In this document: positions 5,641-32,660 of the stretch, in pieces
Layout: each line of letters begins with the position of its first letter
Numbering within the stretch: the first letter of the stretch is position 1
DNA from: Bacillota bacterium
GTDB lineage: Bacteria; Bacillota; Clostridia; Christensenellales; CAG-917
Assembly (NCBI GenBank): GCA_023665365.1
Contig: JAMPEA010000006.1
Span: 5,336-69,335, forward strand
Length of the DNA: 64,000 bases
Direction: 5' to 3'
Program-made: the position numbers and the translations under genes
Notes under the pieces: model-generated
The model's database searches: none
What the model was told of the DNA's origin: nothing
The model's input: only the letters and a program-made list of their open reading frames with translations

Positions 5641-5963
5641 TGCCAAATTGAAAACTTTTCACAGTTTTTCCATAAAATATAACTCAATCGAGAAATCAAA
5701 TTATTATCTTCGCTTATCATTATAATAAAACTGCTTGACACAAAACAAGTTAAACACAAACTGCACTTTTTATTATTTGAAATGAAAGAGAAACTCGGCG
5801 CACTCAAAAGCATGTACGAGTGCGATAATCCGCTAAAACTCGCAATTTAGACGCGATACGCAAAAACTAAAAAGTAGCCAAAACTCGTGATTTAGATGAG
5901 AGGCGCGAAAGTGACGCTTGAATGACAAGCCTAACGTACAAAACGTACGTGACGAATAAAAAA

Positions 5964-6038
5964 TTTCGGGGTCCCCATAAAATGCCCCAAGGGGTCCCCA
6001 TAAAATGTCCCTATTTTATGGGGTAATTTTTGTGGGGG
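5964..6038 (+). repeat. Family B REP-like hairpin (TTCGGGGTCCCC...GGGGT), one copy nested in another
   Basis: GGGGTCCCCATAAAATG at 5968 and 5991. Related copies at 15486, 27011, 27326, 61692(-), 61914(-), 63200 and 63676. Confidence 0.8.
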
Positions 6039-6040
6039 CA

Positions 6041-6186
6041 AAACACCAAGCAAAAGATTTTTGGGTAATATTTTGAAAAATCTTAGCAAAAATGTTTTGC
6101 GCGGTAGTAACGAAAAAATTTTACTGAAAGGAAAGCACTCACATTTTATATGTGGGAGCTTTCAAAACAGTACATATTTTTTCGTT
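6041..6186 (+). repeat. Family G repeat plus long variable hairpin
   Basis: AACACCAAGCAAAAGATTTTTG...AAAATGTTTTGCGCGGTAG recurs at 63711-63775; followed by a hairpin at 6109-6186. Confidence 0.75.
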
Positions 6187-6206
6187 TGACAAAGCATATC
6201 GCTAAA

Positions 6207-6836
6207 TCAAGAGTTTTGGAGCATGGATTTGACTTTCATCAGGCGCGTAGTAGCCCCGCGCTCGTTCTCGTCCAATTTCATCGTGATATACTTTATAGTC
6301 TCTTCAAGCTGAGGTATCATGACGTATTCGAGGGCGTTGACGCGACGGCGATTGCGCTCGATTTCGTCGGCGAGCATATTGCAGGTTTTTTCCACTTCGG
6401 CGAGCTTTAAGAGTTTTGGCAGCAGAGTGGACAGCGACGCGACAGCGCTGTCGAGCTCGCTCGTGACCGACGCAAAGGAATAGGGATAAAGCTCCTGCGT
6501 GCCATTGTTGATGATTTCAAATACGGGGACTTCGACGCTCATCACGTTTTGCGAGGATACGTTGAGTTCCACCTTAGTGCCGGGCAAGGCAATCGCTTCC
6601 TCGATAACCGCGTCTGACGACACTGCGCGCGCAAGCATAAAGGATTTGAGGGATTCTTGAAGTTCGCCCTCGACCTCCTCTCTGAGGCGCTTGTTTTCGC
6701 GCACGTAAAGCATAAATCTGCGAATCATCTCGTCGGATTTATCTTTTAGCAATTTATGTCCGCGAGTGGCGGTTTTGAGGCGCGTTTTGAGGCGTCTCAA
6801 CTCCATTCGCGTGGGATTGACGTTGAGTTTTGCCAT
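6207..6836 (-). CDS. ntpD: V/A-type ATPase subunit D
   Basis: [17 protein letters not shown] and RRRVNALE motifs. Confidence 0.97.
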
Positions 6837-15318: not shown

Positions 15319-15700
15319 AGCTGTGCGTCGTGTACTCTAAAATATATAGCCCACCCCTTCCGACTTCGCGGTTTGCAAGGCAATCCCGCTCGTTCGCTTT
15401 GGCTACAAACAATCCACTGGATTGTTTGCTTAACGCGTCGCGCCCTTTGGGCTTTCCATTTCACTTTTTATAGCGCGCGCGTTTCGGGGTCCCCACAAAA
15501 TGTCCCTATTTTGTGGGGTATAGTATCGTCCACTCGACGCTTACAGCGCGAGATTATGCCACTCGTTCGCGGAAATTAAAACAACAATTTTCCGCTCACT
15601 TGTACTCATTCTGGCACTTGGCACTCCCTTCCTCCGCGCCCTGCGCGTCGCGTTCTAAACGTCGTAACAACTTTGCGTCGTGCTCACCCTCACTCAAACT
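15319..15700 (-). ncRNA. Family F structured element, copy 1 (candidate ncRNA or non-autonomous mobile element)
   Basis: Blocks shared with 32047-32470 (46 nt with 1 mismatch; 35 nt identical); covarying hairpin 15569-15595; carries nested family B (15486-15519) and an AAACAATCCACTGGATTGTTT palindrome (15407-15427). Confidence 0.55.
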
Positions 15701-15709
15701 TTAAACCTC

Positions 15710-15896
15710 AAAAGCTCGCGTAAAACTCTGCAATTTAGATACAGTACGCGAAAGGAGCGATTTTATCTTTTTTCAAACCTATAAAAAACTTGCATAAGCG
15801 CGATAAATTATAAATATAAAAGCTCGCGTAAGCGCGATATTTAGATGAAGAACGCGAAAGAGGCGTTTGTTAGCTGTCTCAAATCGCAAAAATTAT
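15710..15896 (+). repeat. Array of truncated family A left arms
   Basis: AAAGCTCGCGTAA...ATTTAGAT...CGCGAAAG at ~15711 and ~15819, a degenerate unit at ~15785, then the full element at 15897. Confidence 0.8.
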
Positions 15897-16043
15897 AAAA
15901 AGCTCGCGTAAACCCTGTAATTTAGATGAGATGCGCGAAAAAGCCCCGTTTCAAGTCGCCTAGTGTACTAACGTACACGACGACGAAGAAACGGGGCTTT
16001 GACAAAGCATATCGCTAAATTACAGGGTTTACGCGAGCTTTTT
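15897..16043. repeat. Family A hairpin element (complete copy A2) overlapping the stop codon of the giant gene
   Basis: Perfect 29-bp outer inverted repeat (15897-15925 / 16015-16043); inner stem AAGCCCCGTTTC/GAAACGGGGCTT; apical GTGTAC/GTACAC. Confidence 0.9.
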
Positions 16044-19000
16044 GAGTTTCGACTTGCGCAACACAAACGCCACCACCGTCCACACAACCGCGATTGCAAC
16101 CAAACTTGCGCCGACGGCAATCAAGATGATTTGCCATAGCGGCATAACGTTTGCTGTGAACTCGACGAATACGAGCGCGCCGAGGTAGTCGGTGGTATAG
16201 GTAATCTTTCCGTCGGCCACGGTGTAGCCTTCAAGGAGTTTGAGCCCGCCGTCTGCGGTGACGGTGTAGATTGCCTTGTCTTTCAAATCGCCGACGGTCT
16301 CGGGGACGGCGACGCTTACTTCAACACTTCCGCCGTTGAGCGTGACGGGCGTATCGTCGCAGTAGATTTCAAGTTTGACGATGGATGAGAGTTTGGCTTG
16401 GTTGTTGATATGCGGCATATACTCGTTGACGTCGCTCCAAAGCCCCAAATCCGTGCCGCTGCCCTTATCCTGCGTAATCTCTTTTGCGACGAGCCTATTT
16501 GCGACGATATTCGAGCCGACGTTGATGCTCGCGTCGGAGGCTTCGACGTTCTTGGTGGTGAGCACGAGTACGCCCTGTGCGCCCACGAGCTTATAGTTGT
16601 TTTCGTCGAGGTCGCCCTTTACAATCTTGATTGAGAAGGGGTATCTGCCTGCGGATGTGATTTCCTTATCGAAGGAAAGCACGGTCTGAGATTTGGGCAG
16701 TTGCAACGCCGCGTCCAATCCCGACATATTTATGATGTCATATGCGATTTCATAGCTCGTCTTAGCGCTGTCGTACTCGGCGGTCAAGGTCTTGACGGAG
16801 GTATTTGGGACTTCCGTATAGCCGACGTTTGAAATAATCACGTCCACAGTAGCCGTCAAAATCTTGTAGGTCACGGCGACCGTATCCGTCGCATAGTTGG
16901 GATAATCGTCCGCGAAGCTACTGTTAAGCTCGATTGTCACGCGATAAGTGCCGGCGTTGCGCATCTCGTCAACGGCTTCGTAGTCTTTGCCGCGCAGGAC
17001 GGCGTAAGAGATATTCACGTGATTTGCGGACAAATCGCAGACGGAGCTAATCATCTTGTTTACGCCCTCGCCGCCGACTTCGTAGGCATAGGGCTTGCCA
17101 TCGTAGTATTTGGAAGTCGTCACAGCCGAGAGTTGCGCGTTCGCTCTTGCAACGAAGATAGAAACTTCGTCGCCGCTAATCCAGAGATTGCAGTATCCGC
17201 GCGGGTCGCCCTCGTCGATTTTGATTGCTCTCCTGACGACGACGTGTCCGACGTACGCGCTGTCGGAAGCGTTTATGACTTCGACGGCTTCGTCGGCGTT
17301 GCCCAAGCCTATTTCGTCGCCCGCGGCGAGCGCGCCGAGAATGAGATTTTTCACTTGGTTGCTGCCGTCGTAGGTGAAGTTGAACGCATTGTTTTCAGCG
17401 CCGCGCAAGGTCAAGCCCGCCATGTCGGGGAGTTTGATTTCAAGCGTGGACGCGGCGGATTTGAACGGATACATTGCGCCGCTTTCGTCGCCCGCGACAG
17501 CGTAGGTCGTCATGACGTTGCCGTCTGCGACCTCGAAGCCCGTGCCGAGAATGACGTTGTAGTTTGAAGATGCATAGTCCGCGTTTTCGGGAGCGAACAC
17601 GCGAGCCGCGTAGATTTCGTCATCGCCGAGCCCGACGTTGATGCCGTCGCCTTTGCTTATAAGCGCGTATTTGTAGGCGGATTGATAGGTGTTGAGGTCA
17701 ACGATTTCGTCGGCATTTTCCGCGCCGAGCATAATCCACTCGCCCGTTGTGAGATTGAGTACGCCCCATCTGACTTCGGGCAGTACGCCTACGAAAGTAT
17801 TGTGCGCGTTTTCGCCTGCCGCGAAGCCCTCGCCGCCGTCCTTATTGAGGTAGAACAGTTCCACGGTCGGGTCGATGTCGCCGTAGGTCTTGGAGTAGTT
17901 TTTGCCTATCGTCAAAGTGCCCGTAGTCGTGACGTAGAGGTCCTTTTGAGCGACGGTGAGAACGCTGTTGCCCTCGGTATTCGTCTCGCTGTACTTGGGC
18001 TGGAACACGAAGTTATCAATCGCGGTGACGGCGAGGTTGTACGTCAGCGAACTTTCGCCCGCTTTGGGGACGGGGTTTTCAAAGGTGACGTTCACTGTGG
18101 GCAACGAGGATACGGACAGTCTTATATAGTATTTATCCAAATCGTTTTGGTTCACTTCGCCGTCGTACTTGTTAAAGCCGTTGAGCGTTTCGCCGTCCTT
18201 GACGATGACGTACATGCTTGCCGCAAAGTCCTTTTTATAATCGGCGAATTTAAAGCCCATCATATCTTCGAACTGTTCGAGCGCCAAGTAGAGTTGTCCC
18301 TCCCACTCGGTCAACAGATACAAGCCGTCGGAATTGGCTTCACTTGTGTTGTTGCCGTGCGCCAAGTAGGTGACGTCGCCGACAATTTTGTTGAGCGCCG
18401 TGCCGTACTCGACGTTGCCGTCGTTGAGGATAGCGTCGATAGGACGTCTTATAATTTCGCCCTTGTGCCTTGCCGGAGTGATATTGTCGTCTATGCTGTA
18501 ATTGAGATAGTCTTTGCTGGTTTCATTGTTTTCGTCGGCAGGACCGATTCCGCCGGGAGTAAACTCAACGTAGTTTGCATAAGTGGAGGAGTTTTCGTAT
18601 TTTGCAACGACTCTGACTACGCTTACGTCGTCGCCGGGGATTACGCCTACGACTCCGCCCTCTATATAGCTGTAATCAACGTCCTCTACGCCGTAGAAGT
18701 ACGTCGTTCCGTCGTACATTTTGGTAAACGCGTCTTCGTTTATCACGTCGATAGCGTCCGAGGAAATGGACAACCCTTTCTGGTTGATTTTGCCGTAGCC
18801 GTTGACGTAGGTCATAGCCGCGGGGAGCGATTTGATGACCTCGGCATCGCTATCGTCATAACCGTCGTATGCGGAATATATCGCGTAGACCTCGCCCACG
18901 TCTTCGAGCGCGTATCTGCCTGCGACCGCGCCCGCCGCGAACGCATTAGCTATTGCGACCTTGTTGTTGTCGTTGATTGCGATATATTTGTCCGCCGTCG

Positions 19001-27516: not shown

Positions 27517-27619
27517 CGACTTAAAAATGCGTATTTACGCAACTTTGCGACATAAAGTCTTGACAATGCCACTAAACAGTAGTAAACTGTGTACGACTTA
27601 AAAATGCGTATTTACGCAA
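27517..27619 (+). promoter_or_regulatory. Promoter flanked by two identical 26-bp operator-like repeats
   Basis: CGACTTAAAAATGCGTATTTACGCAA at 27517-27542 and 27594-27619; TTGACA (27560), 17 bp, TAAACT (27583) between them. Confidence 0.7.
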
Positions 27620-27639
27620 TTTTAAAACATAGGTGTTTT

Positions 27640-28929
27640 ATGGTTATTGAAAGAGAACGCTATTTAAACAAGCTGATAAAGAAAAAGGAAAACGGGCTTA
27701 TCAAGATAATTACGGGCATACGCAGGTGCGGCAAATCGTATCTGCTGTTTGAGCTTTACAGAAAGTATTTGCTTGAAAGCGGCGTTGATGAAAATCATAT
27801 CATATCGCTTACGCTTGACGACGACGAAAATATAAAATACAGAAATCCGTTTGAGCTTGGCAAGTATATCCGAGGCGAAATCAAAGACGAAAAAACCTAT
27901 TACGTTTTTATAGACGAAATACAAAAGGTAGTGAACGTGCAAAACCCGTATATCGAAAACGCCGAGGACAAGGTGGGGTTTGTCGACGTGCTTTTGGGAC
28001 TTATGAAAATAAAGAACGTCGATTTGTACGTGACGGGCAGCAACTCGAAAATGCTTTCGTCGGACATATTGACGGAATTCCGTGGCAGAGGGGACGAGAT
28101 AAGGATAAATCCATTGAGCTACGCGGAGTTTTATTCGGCGACGGAGGATAAGCGGCACGCTTGGCGCGATTATTATACCTATGGCGGAATGCCGCTTGTG
28201 CTGTCTAAGGATACGCACGAGGAGAAAAGCAAGTATCTGAAAGACCTGTTTGCAAACACGTATTTTGCAGACGTGTTGGAGCGCCATAAGATAAACGACC
28301 CCACCGCGCTTGACGACCTGCTCAATATAGTTGCGTCGTCGATAGGGTCGCTCACGAACGCAACAAAGCTGTCCAAAACGTTTAAGAGCGTGAAAAACGT
28401 CAACATATCCCCCAAGACGATAGACGGCTATCTAAACGACTTTATAGACGCGTTTTTGCTTTATAAATCTTTCAAGTATGATATTAAAGGCAAAAAATAT
28501 ATAGAAACTCCGCTCAAATACTATTTTTCGGACGTGGGATTGCGCAACGCGTGGCTGAATTTCAGACAGCTTGAAGAAAATCATATTATGGAAAACGTCA
28601 TATACAACGAGCTCCGCGTGAGAGAGTTTGACGTTGACATCGGCGTTGTCGAATACAATTATAAGGAAAACGGCGCAAGTAAACGCAAGCAGTTGGAAGT
28701 GGATTTTGTCGCCAACAAGGGAAGCAAAAGATACTATATACAATCTGCACTGACGGTTGCAGACGAAAGCAAGCGTGCGCAGGAAACTAATTCGTTGAAA
28801 CGGATTGCCGATTCTTTCAAAAAAATAATAGTCGTAAAGGACGATATAGTGCCTTGGCACGACGAAAACGGCGTACTCTATATCGGCATTGAGGAATTTT
28901 TGCTTGATGAGAATGCAATGGATTTTTAG
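27640..28929 (+). CDS. AAA_14-type ATP-binding protein with DUF4143 domain and a C-terminal nuclease-like motif
   Basis: ITGIRRCGKS Walker A, FIDEIQ Walker B, VTGSNS, YGGMP, KYYFSDVGLRN, ENVIYNEL, EVDFV...YIQ. Start ATG 27640 after an AGGTG RBS. Confidence 0.9.
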   Translation: MVIERERYLNKLIKKKENGLIKIITGIRRCGKSYLLFELYRKYLLESGVDENHIISLTLDDDENIKYRNPFELGKYIRGEIKDEKTYYVFIDEIQKVVNVQNPYIENAEDKVGFVDVLLGLMKIKNVDLYVTGSNSKMLSSDILTEFRGRGDEIRINPLSYAEFYSATEDKRHAWRDYYTYGGMPLVLSKDTHEEKSKYLKDLFANTYFADVLERHKINDPTALDDLLNIVASSIGSLTNATKLSKTFKSVKNVNISPKTIDGYLNDFIDAFLLYKSFKYDIKGKKYIETPLKYYFSDVGLRNAWLNFRQLEENHIMENVIYNELRVREFDVDIGVVEYNYKENGASKRKQLEVDFVANKGSKRYYIQSALTVADESKRAQETNSLKRIADSFKKIIVVKDDIVPWHDENGVLYIGIEEFLLDENAMDF

Positions 28930-28950: not shown

Positions 28951-29253
28951 AAGTAAAAATGCGCTATTTGGCGCACTGCTTCGTTAGACGAGCACGCGAG
29001 CAACCCAACGTACAAACCAAACGCAACTTAAAAACACGATATTTTGCGTCAGACAAAACAGTTAGTTTGTAAAAACGCGATATTGAGATGAGTGACGCGA
29101 AAGTGCCGCCTGAATTACAAGCCTAACGCACACACTTTACATAAGTAAAAACGCGATATTTACGTTAAACAAAGTAATTAGCTAGTAAAAACGCCACTCT
29201 TTCACGCCAATTCTCTGGATTGCTTCGCCAATAAATTAGCTCGCAATGACGAC
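28951..29253 (+). repeat. Array of truncated family A arms sharing (AA)GTAAAAACGCGATATT, with a family C piece
   Basis: Units at ~28951 (opposite arm), 29028, 29069, 29143 and 29184; family C at 29211-29251. Confidence 0.8.
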
Positions 29254-29381
29254 GTAAAAACGCGATATTTGGATGCAGTACGCGAAAGGGGCGATTTTTT
29301 ATCTCGCCTAACGTACAAGTCGTACGTGACGAGTAAAAAATCGCCCCTGACAAAGTAATGCGCCAAATAGCGCGTTTTTAC
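29254..29381. repeat. Family A hairpin element (complete copy A4) overlapping the pckG stop
   Basis: 19-bp outer inverted repeat with 1 mismatch (29254-29272 / 29363-29381); inner GGGGCGATTTTTT/AAAAAATCGCCCC; apical ACGTAC/GTACGT. Confidence 0.9.
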
Positions 29382-31147
29382 TTTAAGTTGGATTTTAGCG
29401 TATCCAGTTCTGCGCGAAGCTCCTTCGGCAAATCATCGCCGAATTTGGCATAGAACTCCTCAATACCCTCGGCGTCTTGCAACCAAAGCTCCTTGTCAAC
29501 GCTGAGCAGGTTCGCAATATCGGCTTCGGTCATATCCAAGCCTTCGAGATTGATATCCGCGGGGTTGGGGACGTATCCGATAGGCGTTTCGACCGCTTCC
29601 GCAGTGCCTTCCGTGCGGCGGATAATCCAATCGAGCACGCGCAGGTTGTCGCCGAAGCCCGGCCACAGGAAGTGACCCTCGTCGTCCGTCCTAAACCAGT
29701 TGACGTTGAATATCTTCGGGCGTTTCTCAGCCTTTGTGCCCATCTCAACCCAGTGCGCGAAGTACTCCGCCATATTGTAGCCGCAGAAAGGCAACATTGC
29801 CATCGGGTCGCGCCTTACTACGCCGACTGCGCCGCTTGCCGCCGCCGTCGTCTCGGATGCCATAATCGAGCCTACGAAAACGCCGTGGTTCCAATCTCTC
29901 GCCTCGTACACGAGCGGAGCAGTCTTTGCGCGACGACCGCCGAACACGATTGCATCGAGCGGAACTCCCTGCGGGTTTTCAAACTCGTCGGACAGGCACG
30001 GGCAGTTGACCGCAGGCGCTGTAAAGCGGGAGTTCGGATGCGCGCCCTTTACGCCCTCGGCTTGCTCCTTTTCTCCCCAAGGATTGCCCTGCCAGTCAAT
30101 GGCTTTCTTGGGCGGATTTTTGTCAAGCCCTTCCCACCAAACCGTATTGTTTTCAAGATTGTGGCATACATTAGTGAAAATCGCGTTCTTCCTCGTGGAA
30201 GCGAGCGCGTTGGGGTTGGATTTCACGTTCGTGCCGGGTGCAACGCCGAAGAAGCCGTTTTCGGGGTTGATGGCGTACATTCTGCCGTCCGCGCCCACTC
30301 TTATCCAAGCAATGTCGTCGCCGACGGTGTGGACCTTATATCCCTTCTTCGCAAAGACCTCGGGCGGAATGAGCATAGCAAGGTTTGTCTTGCCGCACGC
30401 CGACGGGAACGCCGCCGCGATATATTTCGTCTCTCCGTTGGGCTTTTCAAGACCCAAAATGAGCATATGCTCCGCCATCCAGCCCTCGTGCCAGCCTTGA
30501 TAGGACGCTATGCGCAGCGCGAAGCACTTTTTGCCGAGCAGTACGTTTCCGCCGTACGCAGAGTTGACCGACATAATCGTATTGTCCTCGGGGAACTGGC
30601 AGATATATCTTTTTTCCGCGTCAACGTCCGCCTTGGAGTGCAAGCCGCGCACGAAATCGTCGCTTGCGCCGAGCTGGTCGAGCACCTTTTGCCCTACCCT
30701 CGTCATAATCGCCATGTTGAGCACGACGTAAATCGAATCGGTAAGCTCGATGCCGATCTTCGAGAACGGCGAGCCGACCGCGCCCATCGAGTAGGGGATG
30801 ACGTACATCGTCCTACCCTTCATCGCGCCTCTGTAAATCTCTTTGAGCATCGCGTAAGCCTCGTCTTTTTGCATCCAGTTGTTGGTTGGACCTGCGGTCT
30901 CCTTCTTCTCTGTGCAGATAAACGTACGACCCTCTACGCGGGCAACGTCGTTGGGCAGAGTGCGGTGCAAATAGCACCCCGGCAACAGCTCTTGATTGAG
31001 CTTTATCATCTCGCCCGTCGCAACCGCTTCCGCGCGCAACGCTTCGAGTTGCGCCTCGCTGCCGTCGATAAGCACAACCTTATCCGGCTGACAAAGCGCG
31101 ACGCTTTCGTCTACAAATTTTTCAACGCCTTTGCTGAGAAATTGCAT
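29378..31147 (-). CDS. pckG: Phosphoenolpyruvate carboxykinase (GTP)
   Basis: DVARVE, YGGNVLLGKKCFALR, WMAEHM, FPSACGKTNLAM, VGDDIAW, HPNSRF and VNWFR motifs. Confidence 0.98.
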   Translation of the reverse strand: MQFLSKGVEKFVDESVALCQPDKVVLIDGSEAQLEALRAEAVATGEMIKLNQELLPGCYLHRTLPNDVARVEGRTFICTEKKETAGPTNNWMQKDEAYAMLKEIYRGAMKGRTMYVIPYSMGAVGSPFSKIGIELTDSIYVVLNMAIMTRVGQKVLDQLGASDDFVRGLHSKADVDAEKRYICQFPEDNTIMSVNSAYGGNVLLGKKCFALRIASYQGWHEGWMAEHMLILGLEKPNGETKYIAAAFPSACGKTNLAMLIPPEVFAKKGYKVHTVGDDIAWIRVGADGRMYAINPENGFFGVAPGTNVKSNPNALASTRKNAIFTNVCHNLENNTVWWEGLDKNPPKKAIDWQGNPWGEKEQAEGVKGAHPNSRFTAPAVNCPCLSDEFENPQGVPLDAIVFGGRRAKTAPLVYEARDWNHGVFVGSIMASETTAAASGAVGVVRRDPMAMLPFCGYNMAEYFAHWVEMGTKAEKRPKIFNVNWFRTDDEGHFLWPGFGDNLRVLDWIIRRTEGTAEAVETPIGYVPNPADINLEGLDMTEADIANLLSVDKELWLQDAEGIEEFYAKFGDDLPKELRAELDTLKSNLK

Positions 31148-31439: not shown

Positions 31440-31982
31440 ATGTCAAACGATTTGATGTTAGCTAAAACGAATAAGCTCGACAGCAAGGAACAAAAACTTG
31501 TCATTCTTTTCGTGTTCGACAAAATGTCCATTCCGCTATCCGAGGCGACCGTGCTCGATATGTGCACCTCAGACAACAACTGGCTCACCTACATGGAGTG
31601 CAAGCAGTACCTCGCCGAGCTTCTCGACACAAACCTCATCTACCGCGTGCCAAAGGCGAATACGCTCAATCTAACGCAGGACGGCGTTTCCTGCCTAAGT
31701 CTGTTTTATATGCGCATCCCCACGTCCATACGCGACGAAATCGCCGCCTACGTGCGCGAAAACCGCATGCGTTTCAGAAAAAAACAGGAGTATTTTTGCG
31801 ACTACTCCAAAAACGCCGACGGCACCTATACAGTAGTCATGCGCATCGACAACAATACGGGCGCGCTCATGGAGCTTAAAATGGTAGTCTCAAACCGCCA
31901 GCGCGCTATGTATATATACAAAAATTGGCTGGATAAGGCGGCTGGGGTTTATACGATGCTCCAAGAAAACCTCGTAGAGTAA
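31440..31982 (+). CDS. DUF4364 family winged-helix protein
   Basis: KLVILF...IPLS...NNWLTYME..QYLAEL..LI...LTQDG pattern. Start probably ATG 31440. Confidence 0.75.
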   Translation: MSNDLMLAKTNKLDSKEQKLVILFVFDKMSIPLSEATVLDMCTSDNNWLTYMECKQYLAELLDTNLIYRVPKANTLNLTQDGVSCLSLFYMRIPTSIRDEIAAYVRENRMRFRKKQEYFCDYSKNADGTYTVVMRIDNNTGALMELKMVVSNRQRAMYIYKNWLDKAAGVYTMLQENLVE

Positions 31983-32037
31983 AACGTTATAATTTGCGTT
32001 GATACTGCGTTAGGAGCGCTCATATTGAGCGCTCCTA
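31980..32037 (+). repeat. Family A gene-proximal half arm starting at the stop codon, closed by a short perfect hairpin (likely terminator)
   Basis: TAAAACGTTATAATTTGCGTTGATACTGCGTTA resembles the reverse complement of 32628-32660; then TAGGAGCGCTCA-TAT-TGAGCGCTCCTA. Confidence 0.7.
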
Positions 32038-32046
32038 AATTATTTT

Positions 32047-32470
32047 TTCGTCGTACACTCTAAATAAAAAACCCACCCCTTCCCTGCGGGCTTTCCCCTC
32101 CCACTCAAACTTAGACGGGTGCAGTAGCTCCCTCTTTGCTTATTTAAGTGTTCGTCGTTCGCGGGATGGGAAGTCGGCGCGCGCACGCCTGTTATCGTCC
32201 GCTCGACGCTTACAGCGCGAGATTATGCCACTCGTTCGCAGACCAAAAACAACACGGTCTGCTCACTTGTACTCGCAGTAGAGGTGCGACGCGATTGAGC
32301 CTTTGGCTAACAATCGCTACACCCCAACTGCGTCTGGTGCTTGGCACTCCCTTCCTCCGCGCCCTGCGCGTCGCACTCCGAACACAGTGTGCGTCGCGTA
32401 ACACTCTATCAAACCGACGTTATTCTAAACTGCGTAACAGCTGTGCGTCGTGTATGCCAGCTCTCAAACT
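32047..32470 (-). ncRNA. Family F structured element, copy 2
   Basis: Same conserved blocks as 15319-15700 with different inserted hairpins; G-U pairs fit the minus strand; ends AGCCCGC-loop-GTGGGTT-TTTT. Confidence 0.55.
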
Positions 32471-32479
32471 CTCAGTCTC

Positions 32480-32660
32480 AAAACCTTGTAATTTAGATGA
32501 TAGGCGCGAAAAAGCGCTCAAACTTAAAGCTCGTAAAACCTCGCAATTTGCGTTCAGACAAGGAAAAGCCCTGTTGCAGACAAGCCAAGTGTACTAAACT
32601 GTACACGACTTGTCGGCAACAGGGTTTTGACGCAGTATCAACACAAATTGCGAGGTTTTA
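32480..32660. repeat. Family A element (complete copy A3, 32534-32660) at the nitroreductase stop, plus a truncated arm at 32480-32516
   Basis: Perfect 17-bp outer inverted repeat; CAAGGAAA / TGACGCAG loop; inner GCCCTGTTGC/GCAACAGGGT; apical GTGTAC/GTACAC. Confidence 0.9.

Follow-up and report, generated by a model that had tools for sequence, protein, structure and literature searches.

We analysed a stretch of 64,000 nucleotides (hereafter the window; G000:C55:5336-69335) from a source genome, G000, of 1.59 Mb in 58 contigs (48% G+C, 99.5% complete). Several genes in the window end in copies of a hairpin repeat, here termed Family A, and all six copies listed in a preliminary description of this DNA were recovered where that description had placed them. 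Three are full-length and lie on the minus strand. Full copy 1 (15897-16043), recognized by fold and profile, adjoins a giant gene whose 3606-aa product has no Pfam match; the stop codon TAA of this gene (16029-16031) falls within the proximal arm of the element, and the outermost 12 bp of the hairpin pair the last codons of the gene with the distal flank. The terminal TAA of full copy 2 (29254-29381) is the stop codon of pckG (29378-29380), and full copy 3 (32534-32660), which carries the second type of unpaired box, ends on the stop TAA (32658-32660) of a TM1586-type nitroreductase gene. A fourth minus-strand copy is interrupted: its distal arm, inner stem and tip (5878-5961; profile match, model positions 5-87) are separated from its proximal arm (6184-6219; profile match, model positions 95-130), which adjoins ntpD, by 222 nt of other repeat families (5962-6183). 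This insertion lies just inside the GTCA of the proximal arm and comprises GGGGTCCCC hairpin units, one CACCAAGC-type unit and one variable hairpin. Since the ntpD stop TGA (6207-6209) lies within the outer stem, the last four ntpD codons are element sequence. Two plus-strand half copies consist of the proximal arm only. One (28951-28993; profile E 1.3e-4) begins 22 nt past the stop of an AAA_14/DUF4143 gene (27589-28929). The other (31977-32021; profile E 0.013) sits on the DUF4364 stop (31980-31982) and breaks off at GTCA, where an ordinary terminator hairpin and its T run (32010-32038) take the place of the inner part of the element. Five of the six copies thus overlap a stop codon and the sixth follows one by about 22 nt, as first described, and Pfam bears out the gene names (ATP-synt_D, PEPCK_GTP, TM1586 nitroreductase, DUF4364).

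Profile searches also revealed minus-strand relics that the preliminary description lacked. Behind full copy 1 are two distal-arm relics (15828-15870, E 2.1e-5; 15719-15762, E 0.0014), each followed by a mirrored gene-end flank. A degenerate older copy or relics (29067-29184, E 9.7e-6) lie behind full copy 2 and have in common with it a locus-specific outer-stem end, and a further distal-arm relic (32478-32518, E 3.2e-5) lies behind full copy 3.

The window also holds other repeats. A hairpin unit of ~38 nt beginning GGGGTCCCC, with at least 57 exact matches on the plus strand alone, occurs at 5968-6040, 15486, 27031, 27326 and 61933 and on many other contigs, often as two or three units in tandem; it is inserted after the proximal-arm GTCA in four G000 copies of Family A, and in the tip loop of the copies at the giant-gene stop in the related genomes G022 and G042. 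A unit of ~62 nt beginning CACCAAGCAAAAG and followed by a variable long hairpin (20 sites in G000; 6044-6183 and from 63713 onward in the window) lies at the 3′ ends of genes and tRNA genes (C15, C24, C44) and constitutes a second gene-end repeat family. A ~400-nt repeat is often found downstream of Family A stacks (~32060-32480 and ~15440-15700 in the window; also C43:5632, C54:2216, C54:52570 and C22 near 103000); it has no Rfam match at the gathering score, and the ORF at 32148-32597 within it is probably spurious. Directly behind full copy 2, a short motif GTCGTCATTGCGAG ... GAAGCAATCCAGA (29384-29430) recurs on several contigs.

Anatomy and covariation of Family A

Family A, which has not been described before, consists of DNA repeats that form hairpins and occur in gut Clostridia with small genomes. 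Each element is 125-147 nt long and folds into a single rod hairpin of 50-60 bp. Read in the sense of the adjacent gene, it begins with TAAAAC and ends with GTTTTA; the proximal arm leads into an inner stem that differs among subfamilies, then into a GTAC...GTAC tip and finally into the distal arm. The ends are terminal inverted repeats, reading TAAAAC inward from both sides, and the arms pair over ~25 nt. Conserved unpaired boxes (TTTGTCA on one side and TTTCGCG on the other) make the two strands distinguishable. The folding energies of full copies 1, 2 and 3 are -90.7, -66.8 and -67.8 kcal/mol, with z-scores of -17.0, -11.5 and -11.4, respectively, and none of 200 shuffled sequences was as stable; the opposite strand folds equally well.

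We aligned 30 full copies, oriented by the sense of the adjacent gene, under a 43-pair structure, in which 89.1% of cells are paired and 31 of the 43 pairs show double changes. The covariation score of 0.471 compares with 0.179 for shuffled alignments (0 of 500 reached the observed value) and drops to 0.08-0.13 when the pairing partners are slid by one to three columns, so that Family A is, as first proposed, a genuine repeat with a conserved structure. The tip covariation noted earlier (ACGTAC/GTACGT versus GTGTAC/GTACAC) is exact in all 30 copies: pairs 68-85 and 69-84 are A-U/C-G in 16 and G-C/U-A in 14, and are never broken. The alignment contains at least 11 inner-stem types and two unpaired-box types, and one copy (C5:18384) is a chimera of two inner-stem types. 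Positions 66 and 89 form a U-G pair in 29 of 30 copies. G-U pairs are more frequent in the sense than in the antisense strand (mean 2.42 versus 1.78 per copy, n = 120, Wilcoxon p = 1.4e-4), and the mean difference in folding energy between the strands, 0.7 kcal/mol, is not significant (p = 0.15). Covariation alone does not demonstrate selection on the fold, because hairpin-templated copying of DNA is also indicated here (see below).

Family A matches no described RNA family. Rfam at gathering thresholds gave no match in the entire window, and when the E-value limit was raised to 10 for positions 15700-16200, the matches obtained were AaHKsRNA41 at 26.3 bits (threshold 97) and a chance snoRNA hit; the Clostridiales-1 motif, raised earlier as a candidate, was not among them. 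A literature search on palindromic repeats of Christensenellales found no description of such an element.

Placement at stop codons, orientation and host range

A regular expression for the tip matched 32 sites in G000, and a profile built from them detected 33 full-length copies, several more that run off a contig end, four interrupted copies and ~30 fragments. The profile assigns the strand without ambiguity (e.g., 124 bits versus 8.5 bits on the opposite strand). The 33 full copies occur on more than 20 contigs. They stand behind housekeeping genes, either alone or accompanied by relics of their own, and contigs break at copies of the element.

In 24 of the 33 copies, the proximal arm overlaps the end of the ORF running into it by 1-17 nt, and the terminal TAA of the element is the stop codon of that ORF. 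The distal arm overlaps an ORF end in three of 33; these ORFs are short (74, 91 and 113 aa), all lie in repeat-filled spacers, and are probably spurious. Among the nine unanchored copies, five (one of them the second of a tandem pair) face a gene start, two lack a called neighbouring ORF on that side, and two lie 30 nt and 355 nt past a stop. The same asymmetry was seen across species in 124 pooled full copies, that is, the 33 from G000 plus others from loci of other species that were chosen by the tip pattern: with genes called as crude greedy ORFs, in 79 copies an ORF of 100 aa or longer on the proximal side ends with the terminal TAA, in four this is so at the equivalent place on the distal side, and 28 copies have no ORF end of that kind nearby. 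The bias toward stop codons and the constant presentation of the same arm to the gene on either strand, both first noticed in the window, thus hold genome-wide and beyond. Because the inward reading is the same hexamer at either terminus, a stop codon would be supplied in both orientations, and the demand for one leaves the bias unexplained. Moreover, convergent gene pairs carry one copy per gene in opposite orientations (28951/29254 and 31977/32534 in the window; C22:102635/103219), indicating that the rule follows the gene and not the replication strand.

To delimit the hosts, a covariance model (R1) was built from Family A, and up to 77 candidates were scored per genome. R1 matched all 24 sampled genomes of the genus, with 1 to 74 matches each among the candidates scored. 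Within the family, matches were found in six of 16 sampled genera (10/10, 10/11, 10/10, 2/3, 1/3 and 1/1 genomes) and in none of 22 genomes from the other ten; beyond the family, R1 matched none of the 16 genomes sampled in 16 other families of the order. When species-representative genomes were scanned for the exact pattern, at least 115 stretches were returned; the matches listed are mostly titled Christensenella sp. UBA..., Firmicutes bacterium CAG:475 or uncultured Clostridiales/Clostridia, with a few bins among them bearing discordant labels. The tip pattern had no match in viral contigs (IMG/VR), and Family A had no blastn match in phage and plasmid collections.

Variable occupancy and probable footprints of copying

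Orthologous gene ends differ in whether they carry the element. At pckG it is present only in G000 among 12 genus genomes having the gene, and the protein ends in ..NLK both with the element and in an element-free relative. At ntpD, three of 30 orthologues are filled (G000, G046 and G005); in each the TGA stop lies within the outer stem and the last three or four codons derive from the element, with the protein as long as that of element-free relatives. The giant gene is filled in G000, G022 and G042 and empty in G023 and G041, and the C-terminus ..LKKLA is common to G000 and the empty G041. Behind a further gene, on contig C2, all five nearest species are empty; the protein ends in ..HLYPQ in both G000 and the empty G023, where TAAAAC comes next. 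By eye, element-free orthologues have ordinary terminator-like hairpins directly after the stop. Pairwise identity among copies has a median of 60% and reaches 97.6%, the maximum being found between different loci. Variable occupancy together with such near-identical copies indicates that Family A behaves as mobile or copyable DNA, and as regards mobility the earlier proposal of a mobile element, putatively one recognized by its structure, stands. Family A is both old and still being copied, and it is installed without change in protein length.

Two candidate remnants were considered at orthologous sites. One at pckG in G023, seen by eye, had no profile support and was rejected; the other, at ntpD in G013, reached a profile E-value of only 0.16. 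The five nearest species have only ~80% DNA identity, so that intergenic DNA cannot be aligned; the TA at both ends of the element is compatible with a target-site duplication, and at this distance no clean duplication could be demonstrated. In three DNA sequencing runs of one study, the assembled contigs break at the repeats and yielded neither a filled nor an empty allele. A metagenome scan with the back-translated end of one host gene returned eight contigs, of which three are a relative's orthologues, all empty, and the rest are unrelated.

Fragments of the element are strongly skewed in kind: 38 are distal-only and seven proximal-only. Read in gene sense, 31 of the 38 come immediately after another copy on that strand, forming stacks of relics. 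Truncation points cluster at the tip and at the GTCA site of the proximal arm, and other small repeats insert at the same two places, the GTCA site and the tip loop. A second footprint is the mirrored gene end. Full copy 1 and both of its relics are each followed by the reverse complement of the last four codons of the giant gene, and since element-free orthologues have the same codons without the palindrome, the mirrored flank was copied from the coding end. Complementarity at 10 or more of 16 flanking positions was found in four of 54 anchored copies (those with placeable ends, of 80), compared with 0.001 when flanks were swapped between copies; by eye, mirrored gene ends were also seen at the G000 copies on C14 and C33 and at a relic at the C2 locus. 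Correction of quasipalindromes by templated synthesis is known from Escherichia coli genetics. Relic stacks and mirrored gene ends agree with templated synthesis of this kind, along a folded strand or from copy to copy, and disagree with cut-and-paste transposition.

Copies C18:925 and C9:23544 (96.8% identical) were duplicated together with the end of a gene for one of the giant surface proteins described below. In locus L230 (G041:C17), the last ~27 nt of the giant gene including its stop are repeated directly ~30 nt downstream, and no Family A element is present there.

Machinery that could move the element was sought in G000 and its relatives. The transposase families covered were Y1_Tnp (PF01797) and IS110, neither of which has a match in G000, and DDE_3 and DDE_Tnp_1, which are rare, occurring in one and two of 31 genus genomes, respectively. 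No multi-copy insertion sequence was found in G000, and its long repeats are protein domains. One of these, a 1.1-kb repeat of 82-86% identity, encodes a C-terminal domain that giant surface proteins, several thousand residues long, have in common (C47:4034-5332, C35:7099-8400, C20:8531-9670, C3:11390-12511, C31:2483-3598, C58:42794-43894 and C49:3028-4185). The missing transposase is weak evidence, because metagenome-assembled genomes under-assemble insertion sequences. Ten of the 31 genus genomes, G000 among them, have RVT_1, but copy-rich ones such as G005 lack it, which makes a general retro-mechanism unlikely. At G000:C38:1985-2644, a 364-aa ORF has a reverse-transcriptase domain (69.5 bits).

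Possible roles and origins of Family A

The explanation that we favour, with confidence that is evenly balanced, is that Family A, an interspersed palindromic repeat restricted to one lineage, takes up the terminator slot behind genes, forms the 3′ end of the mRNA and is renewed by templated copying. Its transcription, its 3′-end function and the copying mechanism are what we infer from the genomes. The position of the element, its gene-directed orientation, the boxes, the U-G pair and the excess of G-U pairs in the sense strand point to a role in the upstream mRNA. The element would be transcribed as the last 125-147 nt of that mRNA, and the very stable rod would define or protect the 3′ end, by ending transcription at the short U run, by holding back 3′-exonucleases, or both. 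Orientation would be kept by selection on the strand-specific boxes and the invariant U-G pair of the tip. Spread and renewal would need no dedicated transposase and could proceed by templating from copy to copy, through template switching or gene conversion, where a stop lies in a TAAAA-type context; this would leave 5′-truncated relics downstream and, sometimes, the gene's last codons on the far flank. Alternatively, the complementarity of the arms could be maintained by hairpin-templated copying with no selection on an RNA fold, and the orientation lock could stem from a strand-specific insertion step.

Several observations weigh against this role in the mRNA, among them the equal folding of both strands. 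The U run after the hairpin has 3-6 T, mostly 4-5, and is weaker than that of a textbook terminator; a scan with a terminator consensus (at least 5 T in 8, short loop) did not call the elements. Anchored genes are not significantly poorer in ordinary downstream terminators (2/24 versus 176/1094), nor are they significantly enriched at convergent ends (eight convergent versus seven co-directional, against a baseline of 33% convergent). As for the sites themselves, TAAAAC is not clearly enriched at element-free stops (20 observed versus 14.6 expected).

The leading alternative, which we consider unlikely, is that Family A is a selfish MITE without host function, moved in trans by an unseen or lost transposase that targets TA or TAAAA; gene ends would be its safest landing sites, and wrongly oriented or misplaced copies would have been purged. 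Terminal inverted repeats, the TA at both ends, occupancy that varies at orthologous sites, copies that are 93-98% identical at different loci and the breaking of contigs at copies are all in keeping with such an element, and targets are plentiful, as TAAAA follows 127 of 632 TAA stops of element-free genes. RUP and ERIC, which are TA-targeting MITEs, offer a precedent (PMC2229807). Against this, no matching transposase of the families tried was found in G000 or in 29-30 of the 31 genus genomes, the TA duplication could not be cleanly demonstrated, and the element persists across six genera. Placement exactly at the stop in 64-73% of copies, with native protein length, is far more precise than safe-haven selection predicts, and cut-and-paste would not yield relic stacks or mirrored gene ends.

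Those two footprints would be accommodated by a more radical proposal, which we offer tentatively and rate as improbable: Family A may be a transposase-free, self-renewing gene-end palindrome whose folded hairpin itself primes or guides DNA synthesis. A break at the tip or at GTCA would be followed by copying from another copy and snap-back over the last codons of the gene, so that new copies would be set exactly at the stop and old ones pushed downstream as truncated relics. Templating would keep the arms complementary, and the direction of transcription or translation of the host gene would set the orientation. If true, it would add a new mode of propagation to those described for bacterial interspersed repeats.

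A decidedly less probable alternative is a translation-coupled cis-regulator, in which the terminating ribosome melts the outer stem, exposes or hides a putative nuclease site in the unpaired boxes and thereby tunes decay of the upstream mRNA, as has been proposed for ERIC copies near stop codons in one orientation. In 79 of 124 copies the stem has the stop codon right at its base; the boxes are conserved and differ between the strands; and seven of 15 copies with a large neighbour sit between co-directional genes. For ERIC, orientation is reported to be crucial for ribosome-dependent exposure of an RNase E site (PMC2229807). The nuclease site in Family A is hypothetical, and such regulation overlaps with the favoured explanation of a gene-end repeat and does not exclude it.

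Least probable by far is a folded single-strand recombination site (attC-like or CTX-like) served by a tyrosine recombinase, with gene plus hairpin as an exchangeable cassette: attC sites are imperfect palindromes right after or overlapping an ORF stop, in fixed orientation and more conserved in structure than in sequence, and Family A shares this geometry, with conserved unpaired bases and a variable centre, in a genome with five Phage_integrase matches, but the integron integrase (TIGR02249) is absent from all 31 genus genomes (best score 70.5 bits versus the 265-bit cut-off), copies stand singly, scattered behind core genes (ntpD and pckG among them) with no arrays or cassette-like gene content, their neighbours are syntenic housekeeping genes in element-free relatives, and the termini differ from attC core sites. 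The resemblance to attC that had been pointed out does not amount to integron membership.

Family A is a gene-end repeat of the same kind as TRIT, SPRITE and ERIC, and it stands apart by its strict orientation, exact stop overlap, long modular rod with many covarying subfamilies and two copying footprints. It is about three times longer than TRIT. ERIC copies on or near stop codons, by the 2005 work of De Gregorio et al., reportedly prefer one orientation and have TA as target. Genome-wide, ERIC occurs in both orientations with conserved stems, whereas the stems of Family A are subfamily-specific; its hosts belong to a different phylum, and the two repeats have no sequence similarity. ERIC/IRU, found in Yersinia and other enterobacteria, is a hairpin repeat of ~127 bp; it is transcribed along with the genes on either side, and its effect on the upstream mRNA depends on its orientation (PMC2229807).

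TRIT of Mycobacterium is described as a palindromic terminator motif with 147 copies and a very narrow distance to the stop codon (~-8), for which an extra stem-binding factor was suspected (Gardner et al. 2011, PMC3152330). Like Family A, it is multi-copy, lineage-restricted, conserved in sequence and structure, and overlaps the coding end; unlike Family A, which is orientation-locked, it is described as mostly bidirectional (PMC3152330). Family A also differs in being modular, with at least 11 covarying inner-stem types, in its sequence, which is unrelated to that of TRIT, and in its relic stacks and mirrored gene ends, which that account does not describe for TRIT. SPRITE of Streptococcus pneumoniae is likewise a terminator-like hairpin repeat of a Firmicute; its 30 copies are enriched near the 3′ ends of coding sequences and lie on the leading strand in ~63% of cases, it has an 18-bp stem with a long U-rich tract, no matching insertion-sequence ends and no demonstrable target duplication, and it was proposed to have been co-opted as a terminator (Croucher et al. 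2011, PMC3049150). The terminal repeats of SPRITE, AAAA/TTTT, are very short; its stem and U-rich tract contrast with the 50-60-bp rod of Family A with only 4-5 U, and exact stop overlap and strict orientation are not among the features reported for it there. REP/BIME/REPIN sequences are palindromes of 20-40 bp with GTAG or CGTC tags, located mainly downstream of coding regions, the GTAG type being linked to a Y1 (RAYT) transposase (Di Nocera et al. 2013, PMC3733652). They resemble Family A in being extragenic, in plausibly acting as RNA and in being targeted by other mobile DNA. Family A is no such short palindrome with a terminal tag: it has nested stems over 125-147 nt, where copies contain CGTC it adjoins the tip and does not form a terminal tag, and Y1 transposase is absent from G000.

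REP, ERIC, SPRITE and TRIT have been known for decades, with no agreed account of how they arrive at gene ends or of what they do there. Family A is an unusually clean case, combining base-exact placement, a near-absolute, gene-following orientation lock and many covarying subfamilies with small genomes in which no transposase for it was found, and its relic stacks and mirrored gene ends constrain the copying mechanism. If renewal is hairpin-templated, covariation in multi-copy palindromes would not by itself be proof of a selected RNA structure. The hosts are abundant, uncultured gut Clostridia, in which the R1 covariance model can annotate Family A; if the hairpin is the 3′ end of ~2-3% of their mRNAs, it would matter for annotation, operon prediction and assembly.
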